Shown here one piece after another: positions 1,248-49,174 of a stretch of DNA of 64,000 nucleotides (its first letter is position 1; the number at the start of each line of letters is the position of its first letter). A model generated the notes under the pieces. It saw only the letters and a list, made by a program, of their open reading frames with translations. It did no database searches and was not told the origin of the DNA. The position numbers were made by a program, and so were the translations under genes. This DNA is from Patescibacteria group bacterium (GTDB taxonomy: Bacteria > Patescibacteriota > Microgenomatia > UBA8517), in assembly GCA_035291665.1 (NCBI GenBank), contig DATDRP010000004.1:22272-86271 (forward strand), given 5' to 3'.

Positions 1248-4200
1248 ATGACTGAAATTAGAAAGTTACATAAAGCCGGATCAAGAAGAATCAGCTACAA
1301 TCATTCGGAAGTTGAGAAATACTGGCAAAAAGTTTGGGATAAAGAAGGTCTGTACACTCCCGATATTCATAAATCTGAAAACAAATTTTATAACCTTTGG
1401 ATGTTTCCCTATCCTTCGGCAGAAGGAGTTCATGTAGGAACTATCTTTTCATCAACAGGGAGTGACGTTTACGGGAGATTTATGCGTATGAACGGATATT
1501 CTGTTTTTCAACCGATTGGTTTTGATTCGTTTGGCATTCACTCTGAAAATTACGCGATTAAAATAGGGGAAAATCCACGGTTTACACTAGGTAGAACTCT
1601 GCCACACTTCAAGAATCAATTCAAAATGATAGGTCATGAGTATGATTGGACTAAAACAGTGACAACGTCCGATATAGATTACTATAGATGGACACAGTGG
1701 ATATTTGTTGAATTGTTTAAAAGCGGTCTTGCATATCGCAAATATGTCAAGGTAAATTGGTGCCCTTCGTGTAAAACTGTGATTTCGGATGAACAGGTTG
1801 TAACACCTGCCCAAGCAGGTAAGGATCCAAGGGATGAGAATGGGGAGATCGTTAAAGAGGAAGAGGGGATGCGGGTTTGCGAAAGATGCGGCTTTTTGGT
1901 TCAGGATAAAGAACTTGAACAGTGGATGTTTCGGATTACTGATTATGCAGACCGGCTTCTTGACGGTCTTGGGGGTATTGATTGGCCGGAAAAAATAAAA
2001 ACCGCGCAAAAGAATTGGATTGGAAAAAGTACCGGGGCGCTTTTGACTTTTAACCTACAACCTACAACCCACCCCCCTGCGCACAAGGCTTCGGAAGGGC
2101 AAAGTATCCTACAACCAATTACAGTCTTTACAACCCGGCCAGATACGGTATTTGGTGCAACATTTATGGTGGTTGCCCCGGAATATGCGCAAAAATATCT
2201 ACTTAAATATATATCTGAAGATAAAATAAACGATGTAACAAAATATATCAATATATCCTTAAAGAAAACAAAGGACATCAGACTATTAAATAAGGAAAAA
2301 ACCGGCATTGAAACGGGATTGTTTGCTCTTAATCCGGCAACCAAGAAAGATATTCCTATTTATGTAGCCGATTATGTATTATCAGATTACGGGACAGGGG
2401 CAATTATGGCAGTTCCTGCTCATGATGAAAGAGATTTTGCATTTGCGAAGAAATTTAATCTACCGATTCATAAGGTAATAGATCAGACCTTGGAAACGCA
2501 TACGGTTTTGATAAAAAACAGCTTGGAGGATGGTTTTTCCGATGAAATTCAAAAAAACAATTGGTATCTGACTGATTATTTTGATTGGGGTTATGGATTA
2601 GTTCTTCCAGCTTCAGATGAGCACAAATTAATTGAGGTCATTCAAAAGTTTCTAAAATCTGGTCCTTGGTATGTGCATACCGACGGAAGTCTTAAAGCTG
2701 TTATTTTTAAAGATAAAGTTTTCAGTATCGAAAATGAAAATGAGCAGGCGAAAGATTATGCAAGAGAAATTTCTGTTACTGAAGAACAAATAGACTGGGA
2801 CAACAAGGATAACTATATGTTTTGCCACAATAAGAATGGGGTATTAGTCGATTCCGGTTCATGGAATGGTTTGAAGTATCCGGAAGATTACGAAAAGATA
2901 CTCTCTGATGTAGAAAAAAATGGCTGGGGGGAAAGAAAATCACAGTATCATCTTCGGGATTGGCTGATAAGCCGTCAACGATATTGGGGACCACCGATAC
3001 CGATGGTATTTTGTAGTAACTGTAAGAGTAAGGGTAAGAGTTGGTTTACATCTGAAAAATTTGATAACTACAAAAAACATATTAGAAATTCGAAATTAGA
3101 AATTAGAAATTTCGACGATTGGTCATCGTCAGGCTGGTATCCGGAAGAGAATCTTCCTGTTGAGCTTCCCGATATTCAAAATTATCAGCCTGAAGGCAAC
3201 GGCCGGGGGCCTTTGGCGAATCATCCTGAATTTTACAAAACTAAATGCCCGGAATGCGCAAGTGTTGCTAGAAGGGAAACCGATGTATCGGATACTTTTC
3301 TTGATAGTGCATGGTATTTTCTTCGTTATCCAAGCGTAAGAATAGAAGATCAGGAGAGTAGAAGAGTAGAAGATAAAAACAACTTACCTCTTACAACCGA
3401 CAACTTACAACTTCCCTGGTCACCGGAGGTAACCAGGGAATGGCTTCCGGTTGATCTTTACTTCGGCGGAGCAGAGCATGCTGTACTTCACCTTATGTAC
3501 GCGCGGTTCGTTTGGAAAGTATTGCGGGATTTGGGATATCTTGATTCCCAAAATGACGAACCCTTCCCGCGCTTTTTTGCACACGGATTGATGATAAAAG
3601 ACGGTGCCAAAATGAGTAAAAGCAAAGGCAACGTTGTCAACCCTGACGATTATGTGGAGAAATACGGCGCAGATACTTTACGGTTATACCTGATGTTCAT
3701 GGGACCGATGGATGGATATCCCGATTTCCGGGATACCGGTATCGAGGGAATGAGAAGATTTATCGAAAAACTTTATCAAGTTTTTCAAATGTCAGACGAC
3801 AAATATCAAATCACAAATAAAAATAAATTAGAGATAAAACAACATCAAACTATAAAAAAGGTGACCGAAGAGATACAACAATTCAAATACAACACTGCAA
3901 TTGCAGCGATTATGGAATACGTGAACTCGCTCCGCGAGTCAATTTCCAATTCCAAATTTCTAATTTCTAAACAACCAAAAAATTTGACAATAAAGCGATT
4001 CAGTGGTGATAAAATGGAAGAATCACCCACTTCTCAGGTTCTACAACCTACAACCTACAACCTATATCTACAAACTCTTGCACTTCTACTTGCTCCTTTT
4101 GCTCCGCACATAACCGAAGAGGTATGGCATAAAATCCTCGGTCACAAAAGTTCTATTCATCTTGCAAAATGGCCAAAATACGATTCGGAATTGGTTAAAG

Positions 4201-4400
4201 AGGAAACTATAACTATTCCGGTTCAAATTAATGGAAAACTAAGAGGCACAATTCAAATTGAGGCTGGTAAGTCAAATGATAAAGAATATGTTTTGAGCTT
4301 AGCCAAGGAAAATGAAAAAGTAAACAAATGGCTGAGTGCAGGAACGGTTAAAAAAGAGATTTATATTGAAGGTAGACTGGTGAATTATGTGGTCAGTTGA
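1248..4400 (+). CDS. leuS: leucyl-tRNA synthetase with several lineage-specific in-frame insertions
   Basis: 1050 aa. The N-terminal class-I catalytic core, the CP1 editing region (TRPDT), GGAEHAVLHLMYARF and the KMSKSKGN motif are all present. Low-complexity inserts such as LQPTT repeats and IRNSKLEIRNF interrupt the conserved blocks. Confidence 0.95.
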   Translation: MTEIRKLHKAGSRRISYNHSEVEKYWQKVWDKEGLYTPDIHKSENKFYNLWMFPYPSAEGVHVGTIFSSTGSDVYGRFMRMNGYSVFQPIGFDSFGIHSENYAIKIGENPRFTLGRTLPHFKNQFKMIGHEYDWTKTVTTSDIDYYRWTQWIFVELFKSGLAYRKYVKVNWCPSCKTVISDEQVVTPAQAGKDPRDENGEIVKEEEGMRVCERCGFLVQDKELEQWMFRITDYADRLLDGLGGIDWPEKIKTAQKNWIGKSTGALLTFNLQPTTHPPAHKASEGQSILQPITVFTTRPDTVFGATFMVVAPEYAQKYLLKYISEDKINDVTKYINISLKKTKDIRLLNKEKTGIETGLFALNPATKKDIPIYVADYVLSDYGTGAIMAVPAHDERDFAFAKKFNLPIHKVIDQTLETHTVLIKNSLEDGFSDEIQKNNWYLTDYFDWGYGLVLPASDEHKLIEVIQKFLKSGPWYVHTDGSLKAVIFKDKVFSIENENEQAKDYAREISVTEEQIDWDNKDNYMFCHNKNGVLVDSGSWNGLKYPEDYEKILSDVEKNGWGERKSQYHLRDWLISRQRYWGPPIPMVFCSNCKSKGKSWFTSEKFDNYKKHIRNSKLEIRNFDDWSSSGWYPEENLPVELPDIQNYQPEGNGRGPLANHPEFYKTKCPECASVARRETDVSDTFLDSAWYFLRYPSVRIEDQESRRVEDKNNLPLTTDNLQLPWSPEVTREWLPVDLYFGGAEHAVLHLMYARFVWKVLRDLGYLDSQNDEPFPRFFAHGLMIKDGAKMSKSKGNVVNPDDYVEKYGADTLRLYLMFMGPMDGYPDFRDTGIEGMRRFIEKLYQVFQMSDDKYQITNKNKLEIKQHQTIKKVTEEIQQFKYNTAIAAIMEYVNSLRESISNSKFLISKQPKNLTIKRFSGDKMEESPTSQVLQPTTYNLYLQTLALLLAPFAPHITEEVWHKILGHKSSIHLAKWPKYDSELVKEETITIPVQINGKLRGTIQIEAGKSNDKEYVLSLAKENEKVNKWLSAGTVKKEIYIEGRLVNYVVS

Positions 4401-7261: not shown

Positions 7262-7385
7262 AAAAGTTGTAGGGTGTAGGAAATAGGTTGTAGGAAATAA
7301 GAAGTAGGTTGTAGGAGATGGGAAATATAGTAATTAAGTAATTAAGAGAAAGAAATGGGTTGTGAGAAGTGAGATGTGAGTGGTG
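7262..7385. repeat. intergenic array of short degenerate tandem repeats: (taggttgtagga)x3, (taattaag)x2, (gtgag[a/t])x4
   Basis: Direct reading of the sequence. aggttgtag is the reverse complement of the ctacaacct motif repeated inside leuS and near 49141. Confidence 0.7.
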
Positions 7386-7733: not shown

Positions 7734-7916
7734 GCGCCTGTAGTTTAAAGGATAAAACTTTGGGTTTTCGATACCTAAAGGTAATGAAGTTCAGCCCTCG
7801 TAGCTTAACGGACAAAGTGACAGTTTCCGGAACTGTTGATGCCAGTTCAATTCTGGCCGAGGGCACAGATCGGATTAACCCAATGACTGGAGGTTCGATT
7901 CCTCTCAGGCGCACCA
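7734..7916 (+). other. tRNA-like outer gene: tRNA-Arg(TCG) 5' half and 3' half separated by a ~105-nt insert that contains tRNA-Arg(CCG)
   Basis: - 5' half: acceptor GCGCCTG, D-arm GTTT/AAAGGATA/AAAC, anticodon arm TGGGT-TTTCGAT-ACCTA.
- 3' half at 7888..7916: T-arm GGAGG-TTCGATT-CCTCT, acceptor CAGGCGC (perfect complement of the 5' acceptor strand), discriminator A and an encoded CCA. A T8 run follows. Confidence 0.3.
7794..7865 (+). tRNA. tRNA-Arg (anticodon CCG)
   Basis: Manual cloverleaf: GCCCTCG / TA / GCTT-AACGGACA-AAGT / G / ACAGT-TTCCGGA-ACTGT / TGAT / GCCAG-TTCAATT-CTGGC / CGAGGGC / A. U33 and A37 are present, there is a GG in the D-loop, and no CCA is encoded. Confidence 0.8.
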
Positions 7917-8030: not shown

Positions 8031-9881
8031 ATGGATATTAAATCACAAATAATAAACTCTCTTCGTAAGGTAACGGGTGAGGAAGTGATGAAACTCGATG
8101 TACCTGAAAGGGAAGAGTATGGAGAATACTCCTCAAACATAGCGATGCAAATATTTGCAGGGGTAAAAGACCCGCCTGCCGGACTGGCAGGGCAAGAGAG
8201 TGGAAGAGTGGAAGATAAGGGAAATGTCATTGTGAATCCGAGCTTGTCGGGGACGAAGCAATCTTATTATAACAACCCCCGTCAGTTAGCAGAAGAGATA
8301 GTGAATAAATTAAATAACGATAAGGAACTTCTTGAAGTTGTCGAAAAAATTGATGTTGCCGGACCGGGTTTTATCAATTTCCATCTAAAACCTGACGCTT
8401 TGACAACAATTCTACGGGGGGTTTTGGAAGAGGGAAGTGATTACGGTCGTCTTTTTGTTAATAAAAATAAAAAGCTTTCATTTGAGTTTGGTCAACCGAA
8501 TACTCATAAACTGCCCCATATCGGCCATTTGTTCTCATACATTTTGGGATCATCCCTGTCAAACATCCTGGAAGAAACGGGCTACGAAATTCGCCGCGCA
8601 AATTATCAAGGGGACATTGGTCCTCATGTGGCAAAGTGTCTATGGGCATTTCTTAAAGAAAACCCAACGGTACCAGAGGACCTGGAAGGTAAAGTTAAAT
8701 TACTCCAATTAATGTACCAGCATGGAAGTGCCGCCTATGAAAAAGGTGGTACGGAGAAAGACGAAATTGATAAATTAAATCAGGACATTTACAACAATGT
8801 ACCGGAGGTACAGGAAATTCTTACAAAAACAAGAGAGTGGAGTAAAACTTATTATAAACAATTTGAAAAAAGATTAGATATTGAATTTGATCGATATTAT
8901 TATGAATCGGAAGTCCATCAAAAAGGATATGAATTGGTTAAAAATAATATCGGTAAAGTATTTTCGGAAAGCGAAGGTGCAGTTATTTATGAAGGAAGTA
9001 AAGCCGGACTCCACGACCGGGTTTTTATCACTTCCAGGAATACTCCAACATATGAAGCAAAGGACGTTTGTCTTGAGATCCTGAAATATGAAGAATTTCC
9101 ATATGACAAACTGATTATCACAACCGCAAGTGAACAAAATGAGTATTTCAAGGTAATTTTTTCTGCTATTGAAAAAGTTATGCCCGAACTTAAAGGAAAG
9201 CTTGAACATATCGGTTTCGGAATGGTAAACCTGAAATCCGGTAAAATGGCTTCGAGAACCGGCGAAATTATCGGTGCTGTTGATCTTGTTGACATGGTCG
9301 TAGCCGAAATCAGGAAAATTGTTGAGGATCGAAAAGACCTTTCGGAAGCTGAAAAAGAAGAGATTGCCGAAAGTGTCGGAATAGGCGCTGTAAAATATTC
9401 GTTTTTGAAGAATTCACCGCTCAAAGATACGAAGTTTGACATTAAAGAGAGTATTTCCAAGGAGGGCAATTCCGGGCCATATCTGCAATATACTTATGCA
9501 AGAACGCAGAGCGTTTTGGAAAAAGCGAAAAAACCGTCTACAGCCAACAGTCTACAGATAACAGAAAAACAAAAAACTGTAGACAGTAGTCTGTCAGCTT
9601 TAAGCTTGAACGAAGAAGAATTAAATATTCTTCGTTCACTTCTTCATTTTCCCGAAGCTGTCGAGGCTTCAGCTATCAGTTATTCACCCAATTTAATATG
9701 TAATTATGTTTATGATCTGGCTCAGAAATATAATACTTTTTATAACAAGCACGATATTTTGGAGCAAAGAACAAAAGATAAAAAGGTAAGCGAATACCGA
9801 TTATCATTAACAAAGGCAGTTGGGATAGTGATTGAAAATAGCCTCAAACTGCTCGGGATAAAAACACTCCTTAAAATGTAA
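8031..9881 (+). CDS. argS: arginyl-tRNA synthetase (an alternative upstream ATG at 7935 would add 32 aa)
   Basis: The N-terminal Arg_tRNA_synt_N-like segment (MDIKSQIINSLRK...VPEREEYGEYSSNIAM), the class-I motif PHIGHL and the C-terminal DALR anticodon-binding domain are present. A low-complexity insert ...GQESGRVEDKGN... also occurs. Confidence 0.9.
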   Translation: MDIKSQIINSLRKVTGEEVMKLDVPEREEYGEYSSNIAMQIFAGVKDPPAGLAGQESGRVEDKGNVIVNPSLSGTKQSYYNNPRQLAEEIVNKLNNDKELLEVVEKIDVAGPGFINFHLKPDALTTILRGVLEEGSDYGRLFVNKNKKLSFEFGQPNTHKLPHIGHLFSYILGSSLSNILEETGYEIRRANYQGDIGPHVAKCLWAFLKENPTVPEDLEGKVKLLQLMYQHGSAAYEKGGTEKDEIDKLNQDIYNNVPEVQEILTKTREWSKTYYKQFEKRLDIEFDRYYYESEVHQKGYELVKNNIGKVFSESEGAVIYEGSKAGLHDRVFITSRNTPTYEAKDVCLEILKYEEFPYDKLIITTASEQNEYFKVIFSAIEKVMPELKGKLEHIGFGMVNLKSGKMASRTGEIIGAVDLVDMVVAEIRKIVEDRKDLSEAEKEEIAESVGIGAVKYSFLKNSPLKDTKFDIKESISKEGNSGPYLQYTYARTQSVLEKAKKPSTANSLQITEKQKTVDSSLSALSLNEEELNILRSLLHFPEAVEASAISYSPNLICNYVYDLAQKYNTFYNKHDILEQRTKDKKVSEYRLSLTKAVGIVIENSLKLLGIKTLLKM

Positions 9882-24532: not shown

Positions 24533-25858
24533 TTATAGACTATAATTCCCAAACCAAACAATATAATCAGCGCCATTTACGATCCCGTCTCTATTAAAAT
24601 CTCCGACAATATTTCCCGAAGTTGTGGGTTTTTGATAGTTTGTAAACCAAATTAAGTAATCGGCGCCGTTTGCCTTGCCGTCTCCATTTGCATCACCGGA
24701 ATTTGACCGAATCGAAGTCGGGTATACCGAAGGCAACTGATCGCTAGCTGGGACAACCACTTCTACATAATTTGACAATACAGATTCCGATCCGTTTATA
24801 TTAACAGCCGAAACGTTATAAATATATGTTTTACCCGATGTAACGCTTGTATCGGTATACGAAGTCTGATTTGCAGTAAAATCGGGGCCGTATCCGCCAT
24901 CGTCGCGCCCAATCCGATAATGGGAAATGTAGGGAGTAGTAGATGAATTCCAGGAAAGCGATACCGATTTTGATGTGATTCCCGTGACTTTCAAATTTGA
25001 AGGAGCACATACAGCGGTTCTTATTACGTTTGCAGACGAGGATACGTTACCGGAATTATCCTGGGCTGTTACTTCATAGCTGTAAGAACCACAAGACAAC
25101 GATTTATCAGTATATTGATAGCTTTCAGTAACTTGATCCATGATCGGAGTGAAGCTGTGAATTTTTGTACCGTTACGCCAAATAGAATAATTCGGAATAT
25201 CGCGATTATCTTTGGATGCAGTGCTTGTCAATTCAAAACTGTATTGCATATAATCTGAAGTGTTCTTAACGGTCAGATACGGCGCAGTCGGAGCAGTTTT
25301 GTCGACAATATTTATTATATTGTAATCAAAAGCTTCCCATTCCTCATTAAATCCAAGGTCGGGATTGAATGCATGGGCGACAACCAAATAATCTCTAACG
25401 GGATATAAATTGCTGTCGAAAGAACAGGTGAATGGAGCTGAGAAGTCAGTACACAGTTCCCAAACGTTTGGTTTATCATAATTTTCTTCCAGTCCGAATT
25501 TGACATATTTGACATCACCTGTAGTTGTGACAGTTATGTTTACCAATCCTTCAGCACTATAACCCTCTTGGGGTGAAGTGACTGTGATTGTGATCAGACC
25601 GAGTGGGGGTGTGGGAAGCGGTGTGACGGTAGGGGTGGGAACTCCGCAAGACCAAATGCAGGATGTATCGTTTGAACAAGATGAGTACTCAAAACTTGAA
25701 CAATAGGAAGGACCTGTACAACAGGAATACGCTTCGGATCTTTCGGCGGTTTTCGGATTTTGTGTAAAAAAGATGGCTATATATAAAGTGACGGATAAGA
25801 TCCCGACTGCGGAAATCTGAAGGAATAACGGTTTTTTTAATTTGTTAAGAAAATGCAT
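24533..25858 (-). CDS. secreted Ig-like/fibronectin-III repeat protein with C-terminal dockerin-like module
   Basis: N-terminal hydrophobic anchor or signal, a Cys-rich segment and Fn3-like repeats (SNLKVTGITSKSVSLSWN...). C-terminal GDANGDGKANGADYLIWFTNY...GDFNRDGIVNGADYIVWFGNY. Confidence 0.65.
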   Translation of the reverse strand: MHFLNKLKKPLFLQISAVGILSVTLYIAIFFTQNPKTAERSEAYSCCTGPSYCSSFEYSSCSNDTSCIWSCGVPTPTVTPLPTPPLGLITITVTSPQEGYSAEGLVNITVTTTGDVKYVKFGLEENYDKPNVWELCTDFSAPFTCSFDSNLYPVRDYLVVAHAFNPDLGFNEEWEAFDYNIINIVDKTAPTAPYLTVKNTSDYMQYSFELTSTASKDNRDIPNYSIWRNGTKIHSFTPIMDQVTESYQYTDKSLSCGSYSYEVTAQDNSGNVSSSANVIRTAVCAPSNLKVTGITSKSVSLSWNSSTTPYISHYRIGRDDGGYGPDFTANQTSYTDTSVTSGKTYIYNVSAVNINGSESVLSNYVEVVVPASDQLPSVYPTSIRSNSGDANGDGKANGADYLIWFTNYQKPTTSGNIVGDFNRDGIVNGADYIVWFGNYSL

Positions 25859-25957
25859 ACTCAGGTTATTTTAAGAATATGCTTAAAAGGAATTGATTGT
25901 CAAACAAAAATATTCAAAGAGGGTAAATGAATTTCGCTATTTATACGTATTTCAAGA

Positions 25958-26074
25958 ATACCCCATCTGAAGGCAATTGCCGAAGGATGGGGATGAATTG
26001 AATTAAGAATGTAACCTCGTTTAGACGGATCCGAAAGGATACCCCGCCTGAAAGCGACAGCGAGAGGGTGGGGA
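25958..26074. repeat. tandem duplicated hairpin element (2 x ~55 bp): taCCCCaTCtgaaggcaattgccgaaggaTGGGG / taCCCCgCCtgaaagcgacagcgagagGGTGGGG
   Basis: Two adjacent stem-loops with 7-bp G/C stems sit in the intergenic gap between two minus-strand dockerin genes. The spurious 60-aa ORF 25900..26082 shows the repeat as HPxAxAFRxGIL x2. Confidence 0.55.
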
Positions 26075-26103
26075 GGTTTCATATCAATGTATAAGAAAAT
26101 AGA

Positions 26104-28005
26104 TCACTTCCCGTAATTTCCGAACCAGATGATGTAATCAGCTCCGTTAACTATGGTATCTCTATTAAAATCTCCTGCTGATGGACCTTGGCTGGTTGTT
26201 TTTTTGTAGTTATTAAACCAGATCAAGTAATCGGCTCCGTTTACTTTTCCGTCGCCATTTGCATCCCCCGGTTTTGAAGTCGCCGTCGGGGTGGCTGTTG
26301 GAGTAACACTCGGTCCGCCGGTTGGCGGAGTAGGAGTAGATGAAGCCTGCGGTGTAGGCGAGGGTGGTATCGAACCGTTTACACTTATAGCTGTTGAAAA
26401 TTCACTTGCCAGTCCCGACCACTCAACCGATTTAACTTTAAACCAGGTATTTGATGTTGATCCTTGGTATCCGATACTGCCTGTATACAACCAGACAAAA
26501 GAGTCGTTCCAATGCTCGGCCGCGGTTGATCCCAGTACTCCTCGGACCAAGCCTGTAAACGAGGTGGGGGTCCTGCCGGTATAACTGACTAGTTCATTTG
26601 GTTTTTCGGATGACAGACCGGATATCTCCAGTGTACCTTGATCTGGAAAACCTGTTGTAGAATCTACATTAATTGAAGTTTGGTTATTTGTAATTTTGCT
26701 GGGAGCGTTCAGGTACGTTAACAATGAGGGGAGCAATGCAATCTGGTTATAAGTTCCCCCCTGGCTGGTGGAACCGTATATTTGATATTCCTTAATTTCC
26801 CGATGGTTAGGAGCGGGTTTAAAAGTGACTATTACATTACCGCCCGACGAAACCGCTTTCATATCAGAAGGTGCGGCGGGTTTCTTAAAAATAACATAGT
26901 AGAGATTTTTGTTTCCAGCTTGGCGAATATCTCCGCTAAATGCAATTTTAGTCGTATCGGGACTGAAGCTGGCGTTGACATAATCCCTGCCCGCATCACT
27001 CCCGTAATTTGCCACTCTTACCGGAGCCGATCCGGAAGTTGTGAGCGGTTGCGGAACACTGAAGACAAGAACGTGACCAACCTCGCCTCCAAGGTTAGCT
27101 CCCAGAACCATCCATTTAGCGTCAGGACTGAAGTTGGTGTGATCGCCATAAACTGCACCGTTTATCATAGTTAATTGTCTGGTTGCCGTATCTCGGGCAA
27201 AAAGAGTATTTGCATATTGAAAATCCGACCCATTCCCTCCGATCCAACCTTGACCTCCACCAATCATATAAGCAGAATCGGACAGGGTAGGATGGTCAAA
27301 AAGTCCTGCCCAGGTTTGGTTCCCTACATTAAGCTGGCCAAGAAATGTACCGGTATTAACATCAAAAACCATCGGTACATCTGTATATTGTTCCCATTGG
27401 CTATTATTAAGATACCAAGCGGCATTGTTACCCAGCCAGCCGTGGGTAACATCAAACCCACCTGACTGTCTGCCGGGGGAAACATAACCACGGCAATTTG
27501 TACCGTCAAGGTTAATGAACTTAACTGTACCTGTCCCGGAGCTGATATCGTTGGAGTTAGCAATACCTGAGAGTGTCCTTCCGTCGGGGCTAAGCATAGA
27601 AAAATAAAAAGGGAGGCAGGATGAGGCATTTGGAATTTGTGAAGATATGTTAGCGGCGATTTCTGTTTGGTAGAGATTTTCTTTTGAATAGTAGAACTTG
27701 CTGTCGTGGCTCCACCATCCCATCAGACCTTCCCCGACACCGCTGGAAGGGGCGCTTAAAGTGTGATTATTGTTTCCGTCAGTATTCATAACGTTATTAG
27801 GTCCGGTGATTATATATTGGCCATTAGGACTGAATGGGTTGGAAGTGTAATAAGAGGTAGGGTAGCTTGCAGAAGTATTAGTCATTCGCCATATTTCAAA
27901 GCCGGTTTCCGGATCGGTAAAGATTTCCTTGGGAGCTGCCTGAACAGGTGAGACAAAGATGGTAATAGTTAATATTGCGATAAAAACCTTAAACCAATGT
28001 GACAT
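26104..28005 (-). CDS. secreted beta-propeller (TolB/WD40-like) plus Fn3-like protein with C-terminal dockerin-like module
   Basis: Signal peptide, repeated propeller-blade-like segments, a Fn3-like domain, a TP-rich linker (TPTATPTATSKP) and GDANGDGKVNGADYLIWFNNY...GDFNRDTIVNGADYIIWFGNYGK. Confidence 0.65.
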   Translation of the reverse strand: MSHWFKVFIAILTITIFVSPVQAAPKEIFTDPETGFEIWRMTNTSASYPTSYYTSNPFSPNGQYIITGPNNVMNTDGNNNHTLSAPSSGVGEGLMGWWSHDSKFYYSKENLYQTEIAANISSQIPNASSCLPFYFSMLSPDGRTLSGIANSNDISSGTGTVKFINLDGTNCRGYVSPGRQSGGFDVTHGWLGNNAAWYLNNSQWEQYTDVPMVFDVNTGTFLGQLNVGNQTWAGLFDHPTLSDSAYMIGGGQGWIGGNGSDFQYANTLFARDTATRQLTMINGAVYGDHTNFSPDAKWMVLGANLGGEVGHVLVFSVPQPLTTSGSAPVRVANYGSDAGRDYVNASFSPDTTKIAFSGDIRQAGNKNLYYVIFKKPAAPSDMKAVSSGGNVIVTFKPAPNHREIKEYQIYGSTSQGGTYNQIALLPSLLTYLNAPSKITNNQTSINVDSTTGFPDQGTLEISGLSSEKPNELVSYTGRTPTSFTGLVRGVLGSTAAEHWNDSFVWLYTGSIGYQGSTSNTWFKVKSVEWSGLASEFSTAISVNGSIPPSPTPQASSTPTPPTGGPSVTPTATPTATSKPGDANGDGKVNGADYLIWFNNYKKTTSQGPSAGDFNRDTIVNGADYIIWFGNYGK

Positions 28006-28058
28006 GGAAGTAATTTAATAATCCATCAAAGTGAGGGTTGATGTCAATAAAATTCAAT

Positions 28059-30686
28059 TTATTTCCCGTAATTCCCGAACCAGATGATGTAATCAGCTCC
28101 GTTAACTATGGTATCTCCATTAAAATCTCCTGCTGATGGACCTTGGCTGGTTGATTTTTTATAGTTATTAAACCAGATCAAGTAATCGGCTCCGTTTACT
28201 TTTCCGTCGCCATTTGCATCCCCCGGTTTTGAAGTCGCCGTCGGGGTGGCTGTCGGTATGATCGTCGGTATGGGAGTAGATATTCCGGTTGGGAAGGCCG
28301 TTGGTATAGGTGTGGATGTTGGTACGGGACTTCCGGTGTGGACTGCTTTGATGGCAATATCTTTATTAAGACCGCTTACGGGTATGGACAATGTACCTCC
28401 AGACGAGATTACACTGGTTGTAACTGCACCGGTATAAGTATTCCAGTACTCAATATTATATGTTCCCGCCTGAAGGTTCGGGATAGAAACGGTCGGATTG
28501 ATCGTCCCTGGTGTACCGGTATTTGACCAAATATAATCCCGATGCTGTACCCAAAGATATGCCCGGTAGCGGTCTCCGCTCACCAGTGCAAAGGCGCGGG
28601 TTTTACCTCCGGTATCGTTTTGGACAGAAAGCGTAGTACCGGTGTATCCGGATGGGGTGTCGGCCGCAGTCATGACGGAGGTGAAATTACTGGTTGAAAA
28701 ACTGATATTCTGAAAGAAATTTTTCATTACAAGTTTTTCCTGATTTACTAAATTTGAATATGAGCTGTCGTTTTGATTGTCATACCAGAATATGGGAGTG
28801 GTAGCCATTGGTGAGAACAGTCCGGTCCAGGCTCCATTATGATGTGCCCGGTGGGCACCCTCTCCGGTGGTTCCCTGCGGATTTGGCTGGTTCCATTCCG
28901 TCGTTCCCACACCGATTTCACCCCAGACAAACGGGCGGGGAGCCGATCCGGGTGTCCAATCGGTGCTGTCGCCGATACCCAAACCGTCGCAGTAATATTT
29001 ACCATACTGTCGGCCGTAGAGACACCAGGCAAAACGATGCACGAAGTTGACTTCATCGTTAGTAAGAGCGGAAGAGTAGCGGCTGATCATCATATAATCA
29101 TGGTAATTGGTGAGGTTGAATGCAGGGGAGGACCAGAATGCCGGACTGAATGCCTGAGATCCCTGGGAAGTGGTGCGCATGTGCTGGTAAATATCGGTTT
29201 GCTTCTGATAATCAGCATACTGTTGGAAGAAATTAAATATTGATGTATTTGGAAGAACATGGCCAAGCTCATTATGGTTTTCCCAGGCAAGAATTGATGT
29301 TGCGTATCCCCACCGGGCCACACGGTAACGGAAATTCCGCTGCCAGCTTTTCAGTACCCACGGTTGCGACCAGTCCCAGGAATCAGGCGATTCAGGGTTA
29401 CCCGGCCAGGTAAACCAGGGACCCGAGCAGGAACAAAGCTGGATATAGACACTATTGGTTACTCCTGCGTCGATATACTGATCTTGCAGCCAGCATTCTT
29501 CCGGATTGAAGTAATTACCTAACGGACGGGGTAGCGTTGTATTCGAATTCGGATCGTTATTGACATTATCCTTGGCGAAATGCCGTTCCATATCACCGTC
29601 TGTTACTATCGAATAAAGGATGTTTCCCTGCGCGTCTACCGGTCCGAATTCAACATCATCAACATAACCACTACCTTGGAAGTAGACTACTAGATCCGAT
29701 GAAGGAGTATATGTGCGTTCTGAAAGGGTATAACTGGTGGAGTTGGCGTCGATCTGGGTGCCGGAGATTACGCTTCCCGGAAGCACCCCATTCAGTGACC
29801 TGAGGGATACGGTGACAGTGCCTTTGGTCCAGACTTTTAATTTATGGGAGCGGTTGGGTTCGGTGACAGCTAAACGTTGATACCAGGCTGTTCCGGGTTG
29901 AGCTGCCCTCATACCGGAATGGGTATTAGTATTGATTGTTACTCCGACGGCAGCCCCGTCTGTCGTGGAAGCATTAATCCAGGTTGTATGAGCGCCTTCG
30001 ACCCCCAGTGAAAAATCATTCTGGTCCCAAATCCGGATCAAATTAATTCCGTACTGCTTATCCTGAACAAATCTGCTTTCGTAGTTATCTCCCCAGGGAT
30101 ACCCGCGGGAAAGGGGGACATATGACGAGCCGTTGTCAAACACCATGTACCGGGGATCCTGTGGATTAGGCTTTATAAATCCCGGATTGGAATTGTCGGC
30201 TGTGATGCTGAAAGTTTGGGCAGAGGTTTGGGTCTTACCTTCTTTATCTTCAGCACTGACAGTATAAGAATAAGTTCCGACCTCCGACCAGGTGAACCGT
30301 CCTTTCCACACGGGAAGACCGGACTTACCCATAACATTTCTGCTTCCGACAATGTGCCGGGTGTAATCCTGGTAAAAGAATGCCGGAAGTACAAGCTGTT
30401 TACCGCTGGGTGTAGTGATGTTGATATTAACGGTTACTCCATCCACACCAAACCATGTCATACGCGACGGGTTTGCTGCCTGGGTGTCAGACGGATCGTA
30501 GAAATAATAAGGATTGGGGTACGTTTTGGATAGATTAAATGAGAATTCGATTTTCTGATATTTTTTAACCGATGCTGACGAAGGAGAAACCGTAACAGGT
30601 CCGGTAACCTGCGGGGCGGCTGCCTTTACCGGTACAGAAGAAATAGCAAGAAATAAAAAAATTAGAATAGCTTTTTTATATAGCAT
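28059..30686 (-). CDS. secreted putative glycoside hydrolase (N-terminal beta-sandwich plus TIM-barrel-like domain) with C-terminal dockerin-like module
   Basis: Signal peptide. An internal segment LAWENHNELGH is reminiscent of a clan GH-A catalytic NE motif, but the family is unassigned. The C-terminal linker and dockerin are nearly identical to those of the 26104 gene. Confidence 0.55.
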   Translation of the reverse strand: MLYKKAILIFLFLAISSVPVKAAAPQVTGPVTVSPSSASVKKYQKIEFSFNLSKTYPNPYYFYDPSDTQAANPSRMTWFGVDGVTVNINITTPSGKQLVLPAFFYQDYTRHIVGSRNVMGKSGLPVWKGRFTWSEVGTYSYTVSAEDKEGKTQTSAQTFSITADNSNPGFIKPNPQDPRYMVFDNGSSYVPLSRGYPWGDNYESRFVQDKQYGINLIRIWDQNDFSLGVEGAHTTWINASTTDGAAVGVTINTNTHSGMRAAQPGTAWYQRLAVTEPNRSHKLKVWTKGTVTVSLRSLNGVLPGSVISGTQIDANSTSYTLSERTYTPSSDLVVYFQGSGYVDDVEFGPVDAQGNILYSIVTDGDMERHFAKDNVNNDPNSNTTLPRPLGNYFNPEECWLQDQYIDAGVTNSVYIQLCSCSGPWFTWPGNPESPDSWDWSQPWVLKSWQRNFRYRVARWGYATSILAWENHNELGHVLPNTSIFNFFQQYADYQKQTDIYQHMRTTSQGSQAFSPAFWSSPAFNLTNYHDYMMISRYSSALTNDEVNFVHRFAWCLYGRQYGKYYCDGLGIGDSTDWTPGSAPRPFVWGEIGVGTTEWNQPNPQGTTGEGAHRAHHNGAWTGLFSPMATTPIFWYDNQNDSSYSNLVNQEKLVMKNFFQNISFSTSNFTSVMTAADTPSGYTGTTLSVQNDTGGKTRAFALVSGDRYRAYLWVQHRDYIWSNTGTPGTINPTVSIPNLQAGTYNIEYWNTYTGAVTTSVISSGGTLSIPVSGLNKDIAIKAVHTGSPVPTSTPIPTAFPTGISTPIPTIIPTATPTATSKPGDANGDGKVNGADYLIWFNNYKKSTSQGPSAGDFNGDTIVNGADYIIWFGNYGK

Positions 30687-30696
30687 TTATTTTGAT

Positions 30697-33342
30697 TTAT
30701 TTTATAGTAATTTGACTCGGATCGGTGGCGAATATCACCGGATCACCTTGGAAAAATTCCACTTTACCTTCAACCCAAATTGATTGGTGAAGCTGGTAGT
30801 CTTTTTCTATATTTGGGAAGTTGCTTAATTGTTCAACCGGGATTAAAACCTGTAACAACTGACTGTGAGGCTCATCGCAACTAAGGTAATAGTAACGGCT
30901 GCTTTTATGAATATATTTTATTTCGCAAGATGTTTTTATGTTTTGGAATTCGTATCCGATTGCGTAAAAGTAGGCAATAGATTGTGGTGGTCCTGATTCG
31001 ATATCAGCACCCAGCTGAATATTGGAAATCCCTGCAACCTCCGGAGATGATATTGTATTTGTATCAGCTTGAGTTCCTACATCTTTCAGAACAAAAATGG
31101 TGTTATTTATACTTTTGACTATAATATATTTTCCGCTTACCAGAACATATGGATTGATTGTCCAACCCCGCCCGTCAGCGTAAAATCCGTCGGGATAGCT
31201 ACGGTTACCACCTTCTGCACAGAGGTTAGTACACCAATGTGTAGTAGTGTTACAATTGCCGCACTGCTCCGCTGAAACGAATGGAGTATAAGAACCATTA
31301 ATAGGGTTTGTAAAAGTGGCACCGCGACTGTCACTTCTGTCAGTGATTTTCAGCCCTTCCAGTACAGCCAACCAGTGTGAGTGAAAAACCATATCACTGG
31401 AACCGGAAACCATACCCTGTTCATCCGTTTGGATATCAATAAACTTAACAAATCGAGCATCACCTCCGGTATATCCGGTGACAGTAGAATTATCCAAGAC
31501 CATTTCACCCATGGTGGCATCCTCACGGTAATCACACCAACCGCTGGCACAGGTTTGACCATTGCTATAGATTATGTACGCCACCTGCTTACCATTAGAA
31601 AGAGTACGGACAGCTGGTTGGGGACCGGAATAAAGCCAACCATTACCAAAAGCTCCAAATTTAATGGCTGGGGTAAACATTCGGGCACCTGTGTCCAAAC
31701 TCAAAGCGAAGAGGGTTTGATAATTAGGATTCGCATCAAGGGTTTGTTTAATACCGGCGTTTGTGGTCGGCATGGGAGAAGCAAAATACATTGCATTGTA
31801 ACCATGGCGCATTCGCATGAGTACAATTCCTGTATTGTCAGCGATGACAGGCCAGTTATGTCGGAATTCGTAACAGGCGCTACCTTCTCCGTCCGAGCCA
31901 CAATACCAATTGTTTGTTGTTGGTTTTACATTCCATCGGAGGGTACTACTACTATTGTTGATCGCTCTGACTCGTAAATCCGGATCAGTTGCATAAACAA
32001 TCACATCATACCGGGCGGAATATGAAGGCATGGTAACTTGATTAATACCTGAACCGGGGTTATACGGCCACCCGCCACCCGGAGAACTAAGGTTCGCTGT
32101 AGAAAGTTTATGTAATTTTCCATCATTGGCGGTAAAATAAACATAGTTTCCAGCAATTAACGGGGAAGTGGTTAAACTTGCTCCGGCATTAAAACTATTG
32201 AGCGTTGTACCGTTTGATCCGTTTAATTTGTATAATGTATTTCCAGATGCAACAAAAACTGCATCTGTACCCGAATCATATGCTGCCGAACTGTTAAGAC
32301 CTCCAAGACTTTTTGTCCAAATATTTGATCCATTGGTAAGATTCAGTGCGTACAAAGTTCCGTTTCCAGCCGGTACATATACTCGATTATTTCCGACAGT
32401 CGGGTAGACTTGATACTCAGAAACGGAATCTACATCGCTTCTCATCCATTGGTAAGCCCAACTATTTGAAAGGTCAACGGTATTCCATCCGGTTCTCTGA
32501 GCGTTAAAAGCGTGTTGGCTCCATTCGGTGGTGGGATTACTTGGCATCAGAGTCGGGGTTGGACCACTTGGTGTGGGGGTTGGCTGTTGGACTGTCGGAG
32601 TCGGAGGGACAGGTGTATTGGTTGCATTGGGAACAGGCGTATTTGTCGGATTGGGTGTGGGATTGGGTCCTGATGTATTTATGGTAATTCTATCAATGTC
32701 GGGTGCATACCCTGTATTATTAAGGAACCTTATAGTGTTATTTCCGGATGCAAGACTTACCGATATAGCTTTTGATGCAACTGTTGTCCAGCTTCCTGAA
32801 TTGGCGAATGAGTACAAAGCTGCAGCACTGCCGTTTATGCTTATTGACACATCCCGGTTGGGATCGCCGCTAATATAATATACAGTCATCGTGTAGGCAG
32901 CTTGTGAAAGAGAACTAATATTATTAAATTGAAGGTAATTCCCCGAACCTCCACCTATCCAGCCTACAATTTGTCCGCCTGAACATGTTGTACAGCTTCT
33001 TGCAGCAACAGCTCCCGCAAATGTATTTGAAGTTGATTCCGCTTCATATGAGGCAGTTCCTCCACCTATCGGAGTTGGAGTGGGGCCAACCTTACCGTAA
33101 TTATTAAACCAGATGAGGTAATCGGCTCCGTTCACTATGGTGTCACCATTAAAATCACCGGCTGATGCTCCCTGACTGGTTGACTTTTTATAATTGTTAA
33201 ACCAGACAATATAGTCGGCTCCATTTACTTTCCCGTCACCATTAGCATCTCCGGGAAGCGGTGATTGAGCTGCAGCATAATTGGAGCATGTTAAAAATAT
33301 TAAGGAAAATACCAATACAATCTTAAAATAAAGATTTCTCAT
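30697..33342 (-). CDS. secreted PQQ-like beta-propeller protein with N-terminal dockerin-like module
   Basis: Signal peptide, then PGDANGDGKVNGADYIVWFNNYKK...GDFNGDTIVNGADYLIWFNNYGK, a TP linker, PQQ-like repeats (YALNLTNGSNIWT...) and a Cys-rich C-terminal domain (WCDYREDATMGEMVLD). Confidence 0.7.
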   Translation of the reverse strand: MRNLYFKIVLVFSLIFLTCSNYAAAQSPLPGDANGDGKVNGADYIVWFNNYKKSTSQGASAGDFNGDTIVNGADYLIWFNNYGKVGPTPTPIGGGTASYEAESTSNTFAGAVAARSCTTCSGGQIVGWIGGGSGNYLQFNNISSLSQAAYTMTVYYISGDPNRDVSISINGSAAALYSFANSGSWTTVASKAISVSLASGNNTIRFLNNTGYAPDIDRITINTSGPNPTPNPTNTPVPNATNTPVPPTPTVQQPTPTPSGPTPTLMPSNPTTEWSQHAFNAQRTGWNTVDLSNSWAYQWMRSDVDSVSEYQVYPTVGNNRVYVPAGNGTLYALNLTNGSNIWTKSLGGLNSSAAYDSGTDAVFVASGNTLYKLNGSNGTTLNSFNAGASLTTSPLIAGNYVYFTANDGKLHKLSTANLSSPGGGWPYNPGSGINQVTMPSYSARYDVIVYATDPDLRVRAINNSSSTLRWNVKPTTNNWYCGSDGEGSACYEFRHNWPVIADNTGIVLMRMRHGYNAMYFASPMPTTNAGIKQTLDANPNYQTLFALSLDTGARMFTPAIKFGAFGNGWLYSGPQPAVRTLSNGKQVAYIIYSNGQTCASGWCDYREDATMGEMVLDNSTVTGYTGGDARFVKFIDIQTDEQGMVSGSSDMVFHSHWLAVLEGLKITDRSDSRGATFTNPINGSYTPFVSAEQCGNCNTTTHWCTNLCAEGGNRSYPDGFYADGRGWTINPYVLVSGKYIIVKSINNTIFVLKDVGTQADTNTISSPEVAGISNIQLGADIESGPPQSIAYFYAIGYEFQNIKTSCEIKYIHKSSRYYYLSCDEPHSQLLQVLIPVEQLSNFPNIEKDYQLHQSIWVEGKVEFFQGDPVIFATDPSQITIK

Positions 33343-33466
33343 ACTATGTACGGAAGTTTAATATACTTCTTAAGTCTATCTTACGAAGAATTTAATTATC
33401 AAGGACTAATTTGTAATTGGCCACAGAAGCCTGATATAAGAGTATATAAATAGTATTGGAAAGTTA
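33343..33466 (-). promoter_or_regulatory. conserved intergenic promoter region upstream of the 30697..33342 gene (duplicate of 37169..37291)
   Basis: The ~120-bp intergenic sequence is about 90% identical to the region upstream of the paralogous PQQ gene. On the minus strand it contains TTGATA...TATATT-like elements. Confidence 0.35.
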
Positions 33467-34699
33467 TTATTTGTTGTAGTTACTAAACCATACAATATAG
33501 TCAGCTCCGTTAACTATGGTATCTCTATTAAAATCTCCTGCTGATGGACCTTGACTGGTTGATTTTTTATAATTTGCAAACCAGATCAAATAATCCGCTC
33601 CGTTAACTTTCCCGTCACCATTTGCATCTCCGGGTTTGGAAGTCGCCGTTGGGGTGGCTGTCGGTATGATTGTCGGTGTGGGAGTAGGAGTATTGATAAC
33701 TCCGGATGTCGGAGTCGGGGAGGGGGGGCGCACTGTTGGTGTGGGAGACGGATTAACAGAAATTCCCGCGTTGGTCAGAATTTCCGTATCAGAAAAGAGT
33801 GTAAACGTTTGTGCGTATTTGCTGTTCATTGGTTCCATGAAGAGCTTATTTGAAAGCATGCCGTTAAGAACCGTACCCATATGACTGTCACTCATTACAG
33901 CGTTGTGAGGTTCATTATTGAATGAAGTAAGGCTTATTGTTTCGCCGGCAATCGTAAAACTGGTTCCGGCAAGTTGTGTACTTGCCCATTTATTAAAATC
34001 AAATAACGCGAGATTCCGTTGGGAAGCAATTGTTGCTATTCCCTGATTGACTGTATTAATAGCCTGGGTGGCACGTTGGCGTCCGGTTGCATTTGGGTAA
34101 AGCGATTGGATAAGCAAAAACTGCCCGGGATCACCGATGTTGGCAATTATTATTGGTATGTTTTTGGTGTTCAGGATTGTATCAACAGCGGTAGTAATAT
34201 TTGCAAGAATTCCGTTTATTTTTGATTGAATTTGGGCATCAGTCATTGTGCCGTTGTAAATTGGATCGTACGTGGCAACAGCAGGGTTAGGACTGAAATC
34301 ATTTGTTCCGATCCAAATTACTGCATGGGTAACCAATCCTTGTTGTACTTGTGAAGCCAAACCTGTATGTTGTCCCGAAGTAATCATGGATGACGCGTTA
34401 GCGGCAGTTCTTGCCCAATTGTATGCATACCCGCACCGTCTTGGTTCCGAACGGCATCCCCAAGCTCCCGCATTAACACCCCGGTATTTCACCAAAAGCT
34501 CTAACCAATTATAAGTTGTTGCACTATAGCTTCCACCCCGGTTATCATCAGCCCTGTATTCATCGGTATTGCTATCACCCAATATACCCAGCCCGGTAAT
34601 CGGCGCCCCTAATACTTTACCTGTAAAAAAGAGCTGGAAAATGAGTACCAGTAAGAAAATTTTAATTTTTGAGTTTTTCAATTTCAATTTAAGGTTCAT
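33467..34699 (-). CDS. secreted SGNH/GDSL-family hydrolase (esterase/lipase-like) with C-terminal dockerin-like module
   Basis: Signal peptide, a GDSNTD block-I motif (ILGDSNTDEY) and WIGTNDF. C-terminal TPTPT linker and dockerin. Confidence 0.7.
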   Translation of the reverse strand: MNLKLKLKNSKIKIFLLVLIFQLFFTGKVLGAPITGLGILGDSNTDEYRADDNRGGSYSATTYNWLELLVKYRGVNAGAWGCRSEPRRCGYAYNWARTAANASSMITSGQHTGLASQVQQGLVTHAVIWIGTNDFSPNPAVATYDPIYNGTMTDAQIQSKINGILANITTAVDTILNTKNIPIIIANIGDPGQFLLIQSLYPNATGRQRATQAINTVNQGIATIASQRNLALFDFNKWASTQLAGTSFTIAGETISLTSFNNEPHNAVMSDSHMGTVLNGMLSNKLFMEPMNSKYAQTFTLFSDTEILTNAGISVNPSPTPTVRPPSPTPTSGVINTPTPTPTIIPTATPTATSKPGDANGDGKVNGADYLIWFANYKKSTSQGPSAGDFNRDTIVNGADYIVWFSNYNK

Positions 34700-34855
34700 A
34701 TAATTTTCCGCTTAGTAATTTCTTGGTTATTGCTATTATTTATATTACCCTGTTATGGAATATTTTTAAACTGTCTTTAAAAAACCCTTCCTGGGCGGTG
34801 AGTATTTCATAAGTAAAGAGAGCGGCCTTTGAAAACCATAGATATTAAAGTTGGA

Positions 34856-37168: not shown

Positions 37169-37291
37169 ACTATATACGGAAGTTTTGTATAATTGTTAAG
37201 TCTATCTTACGAAGAATTTGATTATCAAGGACTAATTTGAGTTTAGCCACCAGCAAACGATATACATATATATAGTAGTATGGTAAAGGTA
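37169..37291 (-). promoter_or_regulatory. conserved intergenic promoter region upstream of the 34856..37168 gene (duplicate of 33343..33466)
   Basis: See the 33343..33466 entry. Confidence 0.35.
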
Positions 37292-39649: not shown

Positions 39650-39733
39650 AATAAAGCCTTATATCATTTTGTTGCGGTTGAACATTGAAGTCAAGTGGTG
39701 TCAATGTTGTTTATCTCGAATATTAACAAAAAC

Positions 39734-42134: not shown

Positions 42135-42195
42135 TCTCTCGTATCACGTATCACGTTTCTCGTATTTCGTTTTTCGTATTTAGTTTTGTACAATG
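42135..42195. repeat. short degenerate tandem repeat (cgtatcacgtatcacgtttctcgtatttcgtttttcgtattt)
   Basis: Direct reading. It lies in the gap between adk and the GGDEF gene. Confidence 0.6.
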
Positions 42196-44163: not shown

Positions 44164-44235
44164 CGGGGTGTAGTGAATCGGTATCACGCTACGTTCGGGA
44201 CGTAGAAACACTGGGTTCAATTCCCAGCACCCCGA
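44164..44235 (+). tRNA. tRNA-Pro (anticodon CGG)
   Basis: Manual cloverleaf: CGGGGTG / TA / GTGA-ATCGGTA-TCAC / G / CTACG-TTCGGGA-CGTAG / AAACA / CTGGG-TTCAATT-CCCAG / CACCCCG / A. The C1-G72 pair is typical of tRNA-Pro. Confidence 0.8.
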
Positions 44236-48847: not shown

Positions 48848-48919
48848 TGTCCCTGGGTAGAATCGAACTACCATTTAAGGTTTAGGAAACCTCCGTTCTG
48901 TCCGTTGAACTACAGGGAC
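48848..48919 (-). tRNA. tRNA-Arg (anticodon CCT)
   Basis: Reverse-complement cloverleaf: GTCCCTG / TA / GTTC-AACGGACA-GAAC / G / GAGGT-TTCCTAA-ACCTT / AAAT / GGTAG-TTCGATT-CTACC / CAGGGAC / A. The D-loop is identical to that of tRNA-Arg(CCG) at 7794. Confidence 0.75.
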
Positions 48920-49174
48920 AAGTTTGATTTTTGATCTGCAACTCATACAGGACAGGTCAATTCCTGTCCGCCTGTCCCGTTAGAAGCGCAAGCTTTCTAA
49001 TGGGATTGAGCTACAGAGGCGTATCCAGACATATTTTATCATGATAAAGGATAAATCCGCTATGGATTTGATAAGAGATTGTATATTTTGGAATGTAACT
49101 ACCGGTGTATGATGGAGTTGTTTCCTATGTTTTTTTCTACCTACAACCGACAACCTAAAACCTATTTCCTAAAC

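Follow-up and report, generated by a model that had tools for sequence, protein, structure and literature searches.

How does one short nucleotide motif come to lie, in the same reading frame, within two unrelated essential genes? The question is raised by a stretch of 64,000 nucleotides from a Patescibacteria group bacterium (contig DATDRP010000004.1, positions 22,272 to 86,271; hereafter the window, meaning the whole stretch of DNA that was analysed), in which leuS, the gene for leucyl-tRNA synthetase, and argS, the gene for arginyl-tRNA synthetase, contain nearly the same run of purine-rich sequence. An earlier note on this DNA had described that run as a discrete 21-nt insert, placed in both genes by a mobile micro-element or by gene conversion. 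In fact, what the two genes share is the central part of two short tandem arrays built from the octamer AAGAGTRG, and arrays of 7-nt units are found beside it and elsewhere in the same two genes. The origin that we consider probable, with some reserve, is a microsatellite-type expansion at the level of DNA, with a strong preference for period 7 and a period-8 minority, which operates in a subset of Woesebacteria-like genomes and is filtered by reading frame, by stop codons and by the tolerance of protein loops.

The host is a Woesebacteria-like Patescibacterium, of the candidate phyla radiation (CPR), and its nearest LeuS relatives are Woesebacteria and Microgenomates proteins of at most 61% identity. 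The leuS gene (1248-4400, + strand; 1050 aa) is an open reading frame (ORF) with Pfam tRNA-synt_1 domains, the product of which is a 100% match to a protein named leucine--tRNA ligase from a Patescibacteria metagenome-assembled genome and matches the LeuRS of Thermus thermophilus (PDB 1h3n) with an E value of 4.5e-176. The argS gene (8031-9881, + strand; 616 aa from the ATG at 8031) was identified by an exact match to HLE49122.1, named arginine--tRNA ligase, and by tblastn and alignment with 17 relatives.

The motif reads GAGTAGAAGAGTAGAAGATAA at 3356-3376 in leuS and GAGTGGAAGAGTGGAAGATAAG at 8198-8219 in argS, and both copies conform to a degenerate 23-mer, GAGAGTRGAAGAGTRGAAGATAA (leuS 3354-3376, argS 8196-8218), which occurs exactly twice in the window at up to three mismatches (0.00 expected from 100 dinucleotide shuffles). 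The likeness extends over 27 nt (3351-3377 versus 8193-8219), of which 23 are identical and four differ, each time by an A/G transition. The reading frame is the same in both genes and gives QESRRVEDKN in LeuS and QESGRVEDKG in ArgS, so that 8 of 10 residues agree, where only about 0.006 peptide pairs with this number of identities would be expected between the two proteins. The ArgS copy sits in 17 extra residues, GQESGRVEDKGNVIVNP, which correspond to a gap in 17 of 17 aligned relatives; six ArgS proteins lack the loop that holds this array and others have one of about 20 aa, and the motif region of LeuS comprises about 20 extra residues relative to 1h3n. The earlier observation of one motif in both genes is thereby confirmed, as are the coordinates then given for the two octamer motifs (leuS 3352-3375, argS 8196-8220), with offsets of at most 4 nt; its wider contention, that the likeness exceeds chance and reflects a DNA-level process placing short sequences in unrelated essential genes, also holds.

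What did not survive is the notion of a discrete 21-nt insert, because the motif proved to be the best-preserved part of two tandem octamer arrays. In leuS, the array is (AAGAGTAG)x4.5 (called at 3338-3373 by Tandem Repeats Finder (TRF) and listed as 3338-3376, + strand, with the motif at 3354-3376); it is also detected by analysis at lag 8 and is translated as VRIEDQESRRVEDK. Its flanks look like decayed units, with a 24-nt (three-unit) periodicity, RIEDQ.../RVEDK.... The argS array is shorter, (AGAGTGGA)x2.4 (TRF 8197-8215), and together with the shared flanks it occupies 8193-8219 on the + strand, is translated as GQESGRVEDKG and lies inside the 17-aa insertion unique to the window genome. 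Within each array the A/G variant is uniform (TAG,TAG in leuS; TGG,TGG in argS), and such homogenisation, read from the sequences, would favour local expansion, as local slippage predicts. The tandem structure is the more important because the codon identity of the pair, 5 of 8, is not above expectation given the common peptide (P=0.27), so that a DNA-level origin rests on the 8-nt tandem structure and not on codon matching.

Directly adjoining the leuS octamer array is a heptamer array, (ACAACTT / ACAACCG)x5 (3379-3413, + strand; TRF, repeat family D7), the unit of which is a variant of AACCTAC and which is translated as NNLPLTTDNLQLP. Five further heptamer arrays on the same strand bring the gene to seven period-7/8 arrays in five hypervariable loops: a perfect (AACCTAC)x2.6 at 2052-2069, translated NLQPTT; (ATTAGAA)x4.4 at 3081-3111, with one TAG-to-TCG interruption, translated IRNSKLEIRN; (ACAAATA)x4.1 at 3799-3826, translated YQITNKNK; (AATTTCT)x4.3 at 3941-3970, the reverse complement of ATTAGAA, translated ISNSKFLISK; and a perfect (CTACAAC)x3.4 at 4041-4064, with the AACCTAC unit of 2052-2069, translated LQPTTYNL. 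A second variable loop of argS contains an array of period 7/14 (GTCTACA / AACAGTCTACAGAC; 9532-9564, + strand), translated STANSLQITEKQ. Outside genes, an intergenic cluster at 7266-7380 begins with a stretch of period 7/14/21 containing GTAGGTT, the reverse complement of AACCTAC (7266-7327), and continues with (AGTAATTA)x2.2 and (GTGAGAA)x2.7; the AACCTAC unit of the leuS arrays recurs as (ACCTACA)x3.7 at 49139-49164, and intergenic heptamer arrays (CGTATCA / TCGTATT) at 42139-42186 end 15 nt before the next ORF start (42201). Another intergenic array, at 51596-51622, ends 4 nt ahead of a start codon at 51626.

The preference for period 7 is specific. Lag analysis, used alongside TRF to call tandem arrays, finds 10 regions of period 7 in the window against 0.03 in shuffles, and 3 regions of period 8, again against 0.03; no other period exceeds 3 regions, save multiples of 7 (period 14, 6 regions). 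The comparison set comprised the window, which represents 64 kb of its genome, and 40 related leuS loci, 762 kb in total, with three outgroup loci beside them. Over the 762 kb there are 41 arrays of period 7 and at most 2 of every other period from 4 to 12, and no arrays of period 4 to 12 are found in the three outgroup loci. The leuS and argS genes of the relatives also carry many arrays, several of them perfect, such as (AATTGGA)x4.6, (CGAAGCA)x3.9, (TTTCGGA)x3.7 and (TCACAAA)x4.9, which argues for recent expansion. Their spread is patchy, array-rich genomes having array-poor sister genomes, and in a neighbour-joining tree of LeuS, itself poorly resolved, the array-rich genomes are scattered among array-poor sisters. 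Counted as arrays of at least 3 copies per kb, density is 0.63 in leuS, 0.91 in argS, 0.47 in intergenic DNA and 0.07 in all other ORFs, so that the two synthetase genes are about 10 times denser in arrays than other coding sequence, and the intergenic predominance that marks heptanucleotide simple sequence repeats (SSR) of other bacteria is not found here.

Within the synthetases, the arrays are restricted to places where length is free to vary. All of the arrays in window leuS and argS fall in loops that are variable in both length and sequence in alignments with relatives; in the LeuS alignment (A1) the window arrays occupy five loops, length and sequence differing in every relative. Insert positions were taken from sequence alignments to 1h3n for LeuS and to 2zru for Fni; an AlphaFold2 model of LeuS from an 18-sequence alignment, aimed at loop disorder, was unusable (mean predicted local distance difference test score (pLDDT) 57.8, predicted template modelling score (pTM) 0.36). 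Every array-carrying aminoacyl-tRNA synthetase (aaRS) ORF examined, in the window and in relatives, is intact.

A further restriction comes from the genetic code. Tandem 7- or 8-mers cycle through all three frames, and a unit that contains TAA, TAG or TGA when read circularly therefore runs into a stop codon within three copies. Stop-containing units make up 10 of the 46 aaRS arrays, compared with 38% of background heptamers, and never exceed 3.0 perfect copies, while open units reach 4.9; the difference in median perfect-run length between the two classes is not significant (P=0.29), and the argument uses only the cap and the shortage of stop-containing units. The cap is visible in individual leuS arrays. 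The (ATTAGAA) array reads ATT AGA AAT TCG AAA TTA GAA ATT AGA AAT, with TCG where TAG is due, and stops short of the next in-frame TAG; the octamer array breaks its repeat (GAT AAA) exactly where perfect continuation would give GAG TAG, an in-frame stop. Also significant is the orientation of the units. The ATTAGAA unit occurs in both orientations within leuS (3081, 3941), and the AACCTAC unit is also intergenic (7266, reverse-complemented, and 49139); the presence of units in both gene orientations and in non-coding DNA indicates that the process acts on DNA and not on peptides. That the heptamer units might encode cognate codons for Leu or Arg, or anticodon loops, was considered and set aside, since each amino acid has six codons and about half of random heptamers contain one.

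The reading that we favour can be set out as a sequence of steps, of which the mechanism, the translation of the inserts and their neutrality are deduced from these patterns. Arrays would arise and grow on DNA by strand slippage or by local template switching. Since 7 and 8 are not multiples of 3, only frame-restoring changes, for example of three units (21 or 24 nt), would survive in an essential gene, and the survivors would be those arrays that bring in no in-frame stop and lie in loops with room for additional residues. These would be translated as short low-complexity peptides without a specific role, so that the inserts are probably functionless, and the arrays would then decay by point mutation. 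A difference of two octamer units between two relatives (L007 and L008) at one orthologous non-coding site, a single site, is the change of copy number seen between orthologues. The site belongs to a T-box-like leader (L007 18650-19070, L008 16528-16773) with a conserved AAGGGTGGTACCG box, which scores 24.9 bits against Rfam RF00230 (E 0.0012; gathering score 93) and precedes an unknown ORF of 431 aa and then a DIT1/PvcA-like gene; the octamer array, two units longer in L007 than in L008, is held in its antiterminator loop.

Several observations weigh against expansion by slippage as a complete account. The 67 non-overlapping heptamer arrays draw on 44 distinct units, where 64 would be expected (P<0.0005), the commonest of them, AAATTGG, is used 6 times where about 2 uses would be expected, and AACCTAC is present at five window sites; plain slippage does not explain this recurrence of units. 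Arrays are also denser in leuS and argS than in intergenic DNA, a difference that simple tolerance would not lead one to expect. The ending AAGATAA is common to both window copies of the octamer motif, and stop avoidance accounts for it in leuS (TAG) but not in argS (TGG). A search for strain variants of the window genome with other copy numbers gave alternative start codons only, so that ongoing slippage is not directly observed; the LeuS protein is identical in four assemblies. Moreover, the 31-nt (ATTAGAA)n array in the KSWF...DWSS loop is identical, TAG-to-TCG change included, in the window (3081-3111) and in the relative L002 (7815-7847), although the two LeuS proteins are only about 55% identical, which reflects either a DNA-level constraint or two separate formations of the array, with stop codons limiting it in the same way each time. 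The favoured account does not explain why arrays are about ten times denser in two aaRS genes, why particular units recur, or why distant relatives have this nucleotide-identical array. Finally, arrays of the AAGAGTRG type are found at aa ~700 of LeuS and in the N-terminal loop of ArgS in the window, and in relatives at LeuS aa 638 (L001), at ArgS aa 488 (L003) and aa 596 (L025) and in the T-box-like leader loop (L007, L008), and at six non-orthologous sites in five genomes they share an irregular core, [AG][AG][GT]CN[AG]GAGAGT[AG][GT]A?AG (..GCNGGAGAGTRG..), where 0.05 occurrences would be expected.

This core argues for the main alternative, in which the leuS and argS inserts and the octamer arrays of the relatives derive by copying from a single purine-rich element, some 24-40 nt long, spread by templated repair, ectopic gene conversion or an unknown micro-mobile-element mechanism; we regard it as rather unlikely but as a serious rival. 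A similar spread has been suggested for very small repeats dispersed in cyanobacterial genomes. Six arrays in five genomes have the form ..AAGAGCNG|GAGAGTRG.. at non-orthologous positions (LeuS aa ~638 and ~700, three ArgS loops and the T-box-like leader loop), and they are all in sense orientation and, in the five coding copies, in one frame. The window pair alone has the AAGATAA ending and a preceding CAR in common, an octamer array directly abuts a heptamer array in two genes (window leuS and L003 argS), unit vocabularies are genome-specific, as with AACCTAC, and in-frame octamer arrays occur on low-GC metagenome contigs in a RecR-like protein and in a Pol I 5'-3' exonuclease-domain-like protein, both identified by eye. 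The six or seven related copies in LeuS and ArgS loops and in an RNA leader display the dispersal to non-orthologous sites that is typical of mobile elements. Against copying stands the architecture of the copies themselves. Inspection of the flanks for target-site duplications gave only AGGG..AGGG at argS, no better than chance, and GAAGAT..GAAGAT at leuS, which belongs to the periodicity of the array; no terminal inverted repeat or hairpin potential is reported at 3338-3413 or 8193-8219, where the sequence is purine-rich on one strand; the seven octamer copies range from about 2 to 4.5 units, with decayed edges and differing ends; a motif search at up to 3 mismatches found no third copy or donor in the 64-kb window; and no candidate enzyme was seen among the scanned window ORFs. 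Two of the A/G differences fall inside the array units and are concerted, as local homogenisation would predict, and the codon-level identity is no higher than a common peptide predicts. The earlier proposal of templated insertion therefore keeps the shared irregular core and the AAGATAA ending in its favour and lacks target-site duplications, fixed ends and a third copy. The exact motif is confined to two sites within the window, yet its family occurs in relatives and, in a scan with RAGAGTRGAAGAGTRGAAGA, on more than 120 metagenome contigs of 27-69% GC in mixed contexts, many with long (AAGAGTGG)n arrays; likewise, relatives have unrelated sequence or a gap at the sites of the inserts, yet many such inserts are themselves repeat arrays. 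The idea of a widespread special octamer family was dropped, because permuted purine-rich octamer controls are as frequent or more so in viral contigs (5 versus 64, 55 and 13), and wide occurrence is accordingly not evidence of a single mobile family. A related proposal, which we hold to be doubtful, is an active unit-specific process in a subset of Woesebacteria-like CPR that would seed or spread 7- and 8-mer arrays between loci, with a strong preference for, or retention in, aaRS genes; it might be repair by template switching from one array to another, or a hitherto unknown enzyme that measures out 7 nt.

If the arrays were instead kept for their products, ..ESxRVE[DE].. and the other repeat-encoded peptides would serve as flexible charged linkers or as contacts to RNA or partners, by convergence at the level of protein. 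The similar charged peptides of the five coding octamer copies, all in the same frame, could be read in this way, as could a density in leuS and argS ten times that of other coding sequence and above that of intergenic DNA, the 31-nt identity of the (ATTAGAA) array in otherwise divergent LeuS proteins, and a codon identity for the window pair that a common peptide alone would give. A period of 7 or 8 nt is meaningless for a protein, however, and the units are found in both gene orientations, where they encode unrelated peptides, as well as in intergenic DNA and an RNA leader loop; relatives carry unrelated sequences, other lengths or nothing at each loop, and the ArgS insert of the window is missing from all 17 aligned relatives, which together make a selected peptide module improbable. 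Chance resemblance between two purine-rich stretches of an AT-rich genome, both coding for Glu, Arg, Ser, Val and Lys, would draw on a purine-rich coding strand with GAA, AGA, AAA and GAT as preferred codons, and purine-rich octamer repeats are common in large databases, but the expectations of 0.00 matches in shuffles and of about 0.006 peptide pairs, the tandem repetition of one unit in both copies and the recurrence of the family in relatives (0.05 expected) leave it next to no weight. It is just as hard to credit that these are contingency repeats that switch genes by frameshift (phase variation): unit lengths that are not multiples of three recall classical contingency loci, but the genes are essential and apparently present in single copies in the window, the arrays are short and interrupted, every array-carrying aaRS ORF examined is intact and the LeuS protein is the same in four assemblies.

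Compared with repeats known from other bacteria, the arrays are close to the heptanucleotide SSR and the short tandemly repeated repetitive (STRR) sequences. An excess of heptanucleotide repeats is known in bacteria, and polymerase slippage, with a footprint of about 7 nt as the stretch that the active site holds, has been proposed as its cause, as far as this work is reported in later papers (Mrazek 2007, via PMC4692102, PMC4679880); known cases are the cyanobacterial STRR (Calothrix, Nostoc), GGGAATC of Xanthomonas and TAACTGA of Beggiatoaceae (PMC4692102, PMC4679880). The arrays described here share with them tandem head-to-tail heptamers, typically in 2-7 copies, an excess of period 7 over neighbouring periods, patchy occurrence among lineages and a few recurring units per genome, though the two arrays from which this study departs are of period 8. 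The known repeats are reported to lie chiefly between genes and to be depleted from coding sequence (PMC4692102), whereas most arrays here are in frame inside ORFs, with a concentration in two aaRS genes. Further differences are the CPR host, A/T-rich units of some diversity (44 in 67 arrays) and the presence of an octamer family alongside the heptamers. The TAACTGA direct repeats of marine Beggiatoaceae, cyanobacteria and Bacteroidetes consist of one heptamer at many loci, with no transfer mechanism evident (PMC4679880). As in that family, some window arrays stand just upstream of start codons (42139-42186, 51596-51622), but TAACTGA is a single unit, found mostly in 5' leaders with a suggested regulatory role, in contrast to the many units, mostly inside genes, seen here.

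In comparison with miniature mobile elements of the MITE (miniature inverted-repeat transposable element), REP (repetitive extragenic palindromic) or RPE (Rickettsia palindromic element) type, every tested hallmark failed save dispersal to non-orthologous sites. Rickettsia palindromic elements lie in frame in unrelated essential genes, where they supply extra surface peptides at permissive sites, but they are palindromic, of fixed length (about 100-150 bp) and dispersed whole, while the arrays considered here are 20-50 nt long, non-palindromic, tandem and variable in length. The small dispersed repeats (SDR, 21-27 nt) of Nostoc have reportedly spread to many loci without encoded machinery in heptamer-rich genomes; they are said to be defined sequences, some with predicted hairpins, nested in other repeats, unlike these arrays. 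The low-complexity inserts of Plasmodium offer a eukaryotic parallel, with an AT-rich genome and peptides derived from simple repeats between conserved blocks of essential enzymes, aaRS included, but Plasmodium repeats are mostly codon-based (period 3) and Asn/Lys-rich, unlike the primary period of 7 or 8 nt here. Numerous idiosyncratic insertions are described in the apicoplast aaRSs of Plasmodium (PMC6310243). Literature searches for heptamer arrays, or for inserts made of repeats, in CPR bacteria and their synthetases yielded nothing specific. The heptamer excess is already known from other bacteria; the in-frame arrays in CPR aaRS genes look like a new form of it.

The fni gene (ORF 54217-55305, + strand; an exact match to HLE49160.1, with a match to PDB 2zru) had also been noted for an in-frame simple repeat, and this was borne out: the stretch AGTAACAGTAATAGTAAGAGTAAG at 55033-55056 lies in an array (AGTAAG)x4.3 (55033-55058, + strand; (AGTAAN)4 in frame; TRF, 2zru alignment, alignment A4) translated as SNSNSKSK, in a variable linker that exceeds that of 2zru by 21 residues, and none of the 14 aligned relatives has the SNSNSKSK stretch. 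Having period 6, it is an ordinary codon-compatible simple repeat outside the 7/8 family. One Fni relative, P0122 (on a 1.8-kb contig; alignment A4), is identical to window Fni for the first ~205 residues and far more divergent thereafter, and is either a recombinant or a chimeric contig.

The surroundings of the two synthetase genes are conserved, the gene order atp operon, leuS, comEA, comEC, MBL, argS being kept among relatives. Three tRNA genes are present in the window, at 7794-7865 (+), 44164-44235 (+) and 48848-48919 (-), the first of them between the array cluster at 7266-7380 and argS, and Rfam at gathering thresholds gave nothing besides tRNAs in the window and four loci. Window LeuS also has a conserved insert of about 115 aa (aa ~412-527), shared with the relatives P0002-P0005; in some Microgenomates LeuS (P0007, P0012; alignment A1 columns ~600-800) the same site is occupied by a NUDIX domain (PF00293). 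The adenylate kinase ORF at 41019-42128 (+) is 369 aa long, well above the 190-220 aa or so that is typical of bacterial Adk, and the spread of the ADK profile across residues 67-290 points to large inserts in its product. The region 24533-40897 (- strand) holds eight adjacent genes for proteins with a type I dockerin domain, placed at the C-terminus in six and at the N-terminus in two, and joined to fn3, CBM6, PQQ-type beta-propeller, GDSL lipase and Laminin_G_3 domains; its GC content is 43-46%, against 37-39% elsewhere, and its dockerin-coding parts make up the 207-nt direct-repeat family of the window. Such a cellulosome-like protein set seemed out of the ordinary for a CPR bacterium.

For the biology of these organisms, the arrays account for part of the unusual length of these CPR synthetases; LeuS has 1050 aa compared with 878 aa in Thermus thermophilus LeuRS, much of the difference being the separate insert of about 115 aa. 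They illustrate that an essential gene can take in repeats whose unit length is not divisible by three, when the products pass a filter of reading frame, stop codons and loop tolerance; alignments, phylogenies and structure predictions built on CPR marker proteins can be distorted by such inserts. Taken together, the sharp period-7 preference, the reuse of units and a density about ten times higher in two synthetase genes point beyond generic slippage, and the system is a compact one for testing the old polymerase-footprint hypothesis of heptamer repeats. Should a unit-specific spreading process prove to be at work, it would supply core translation enzymes with new surface peptides, and would offer a tractable bacterial model for the origin of dispersed heptamer families such as the cyanobacterial STRR.

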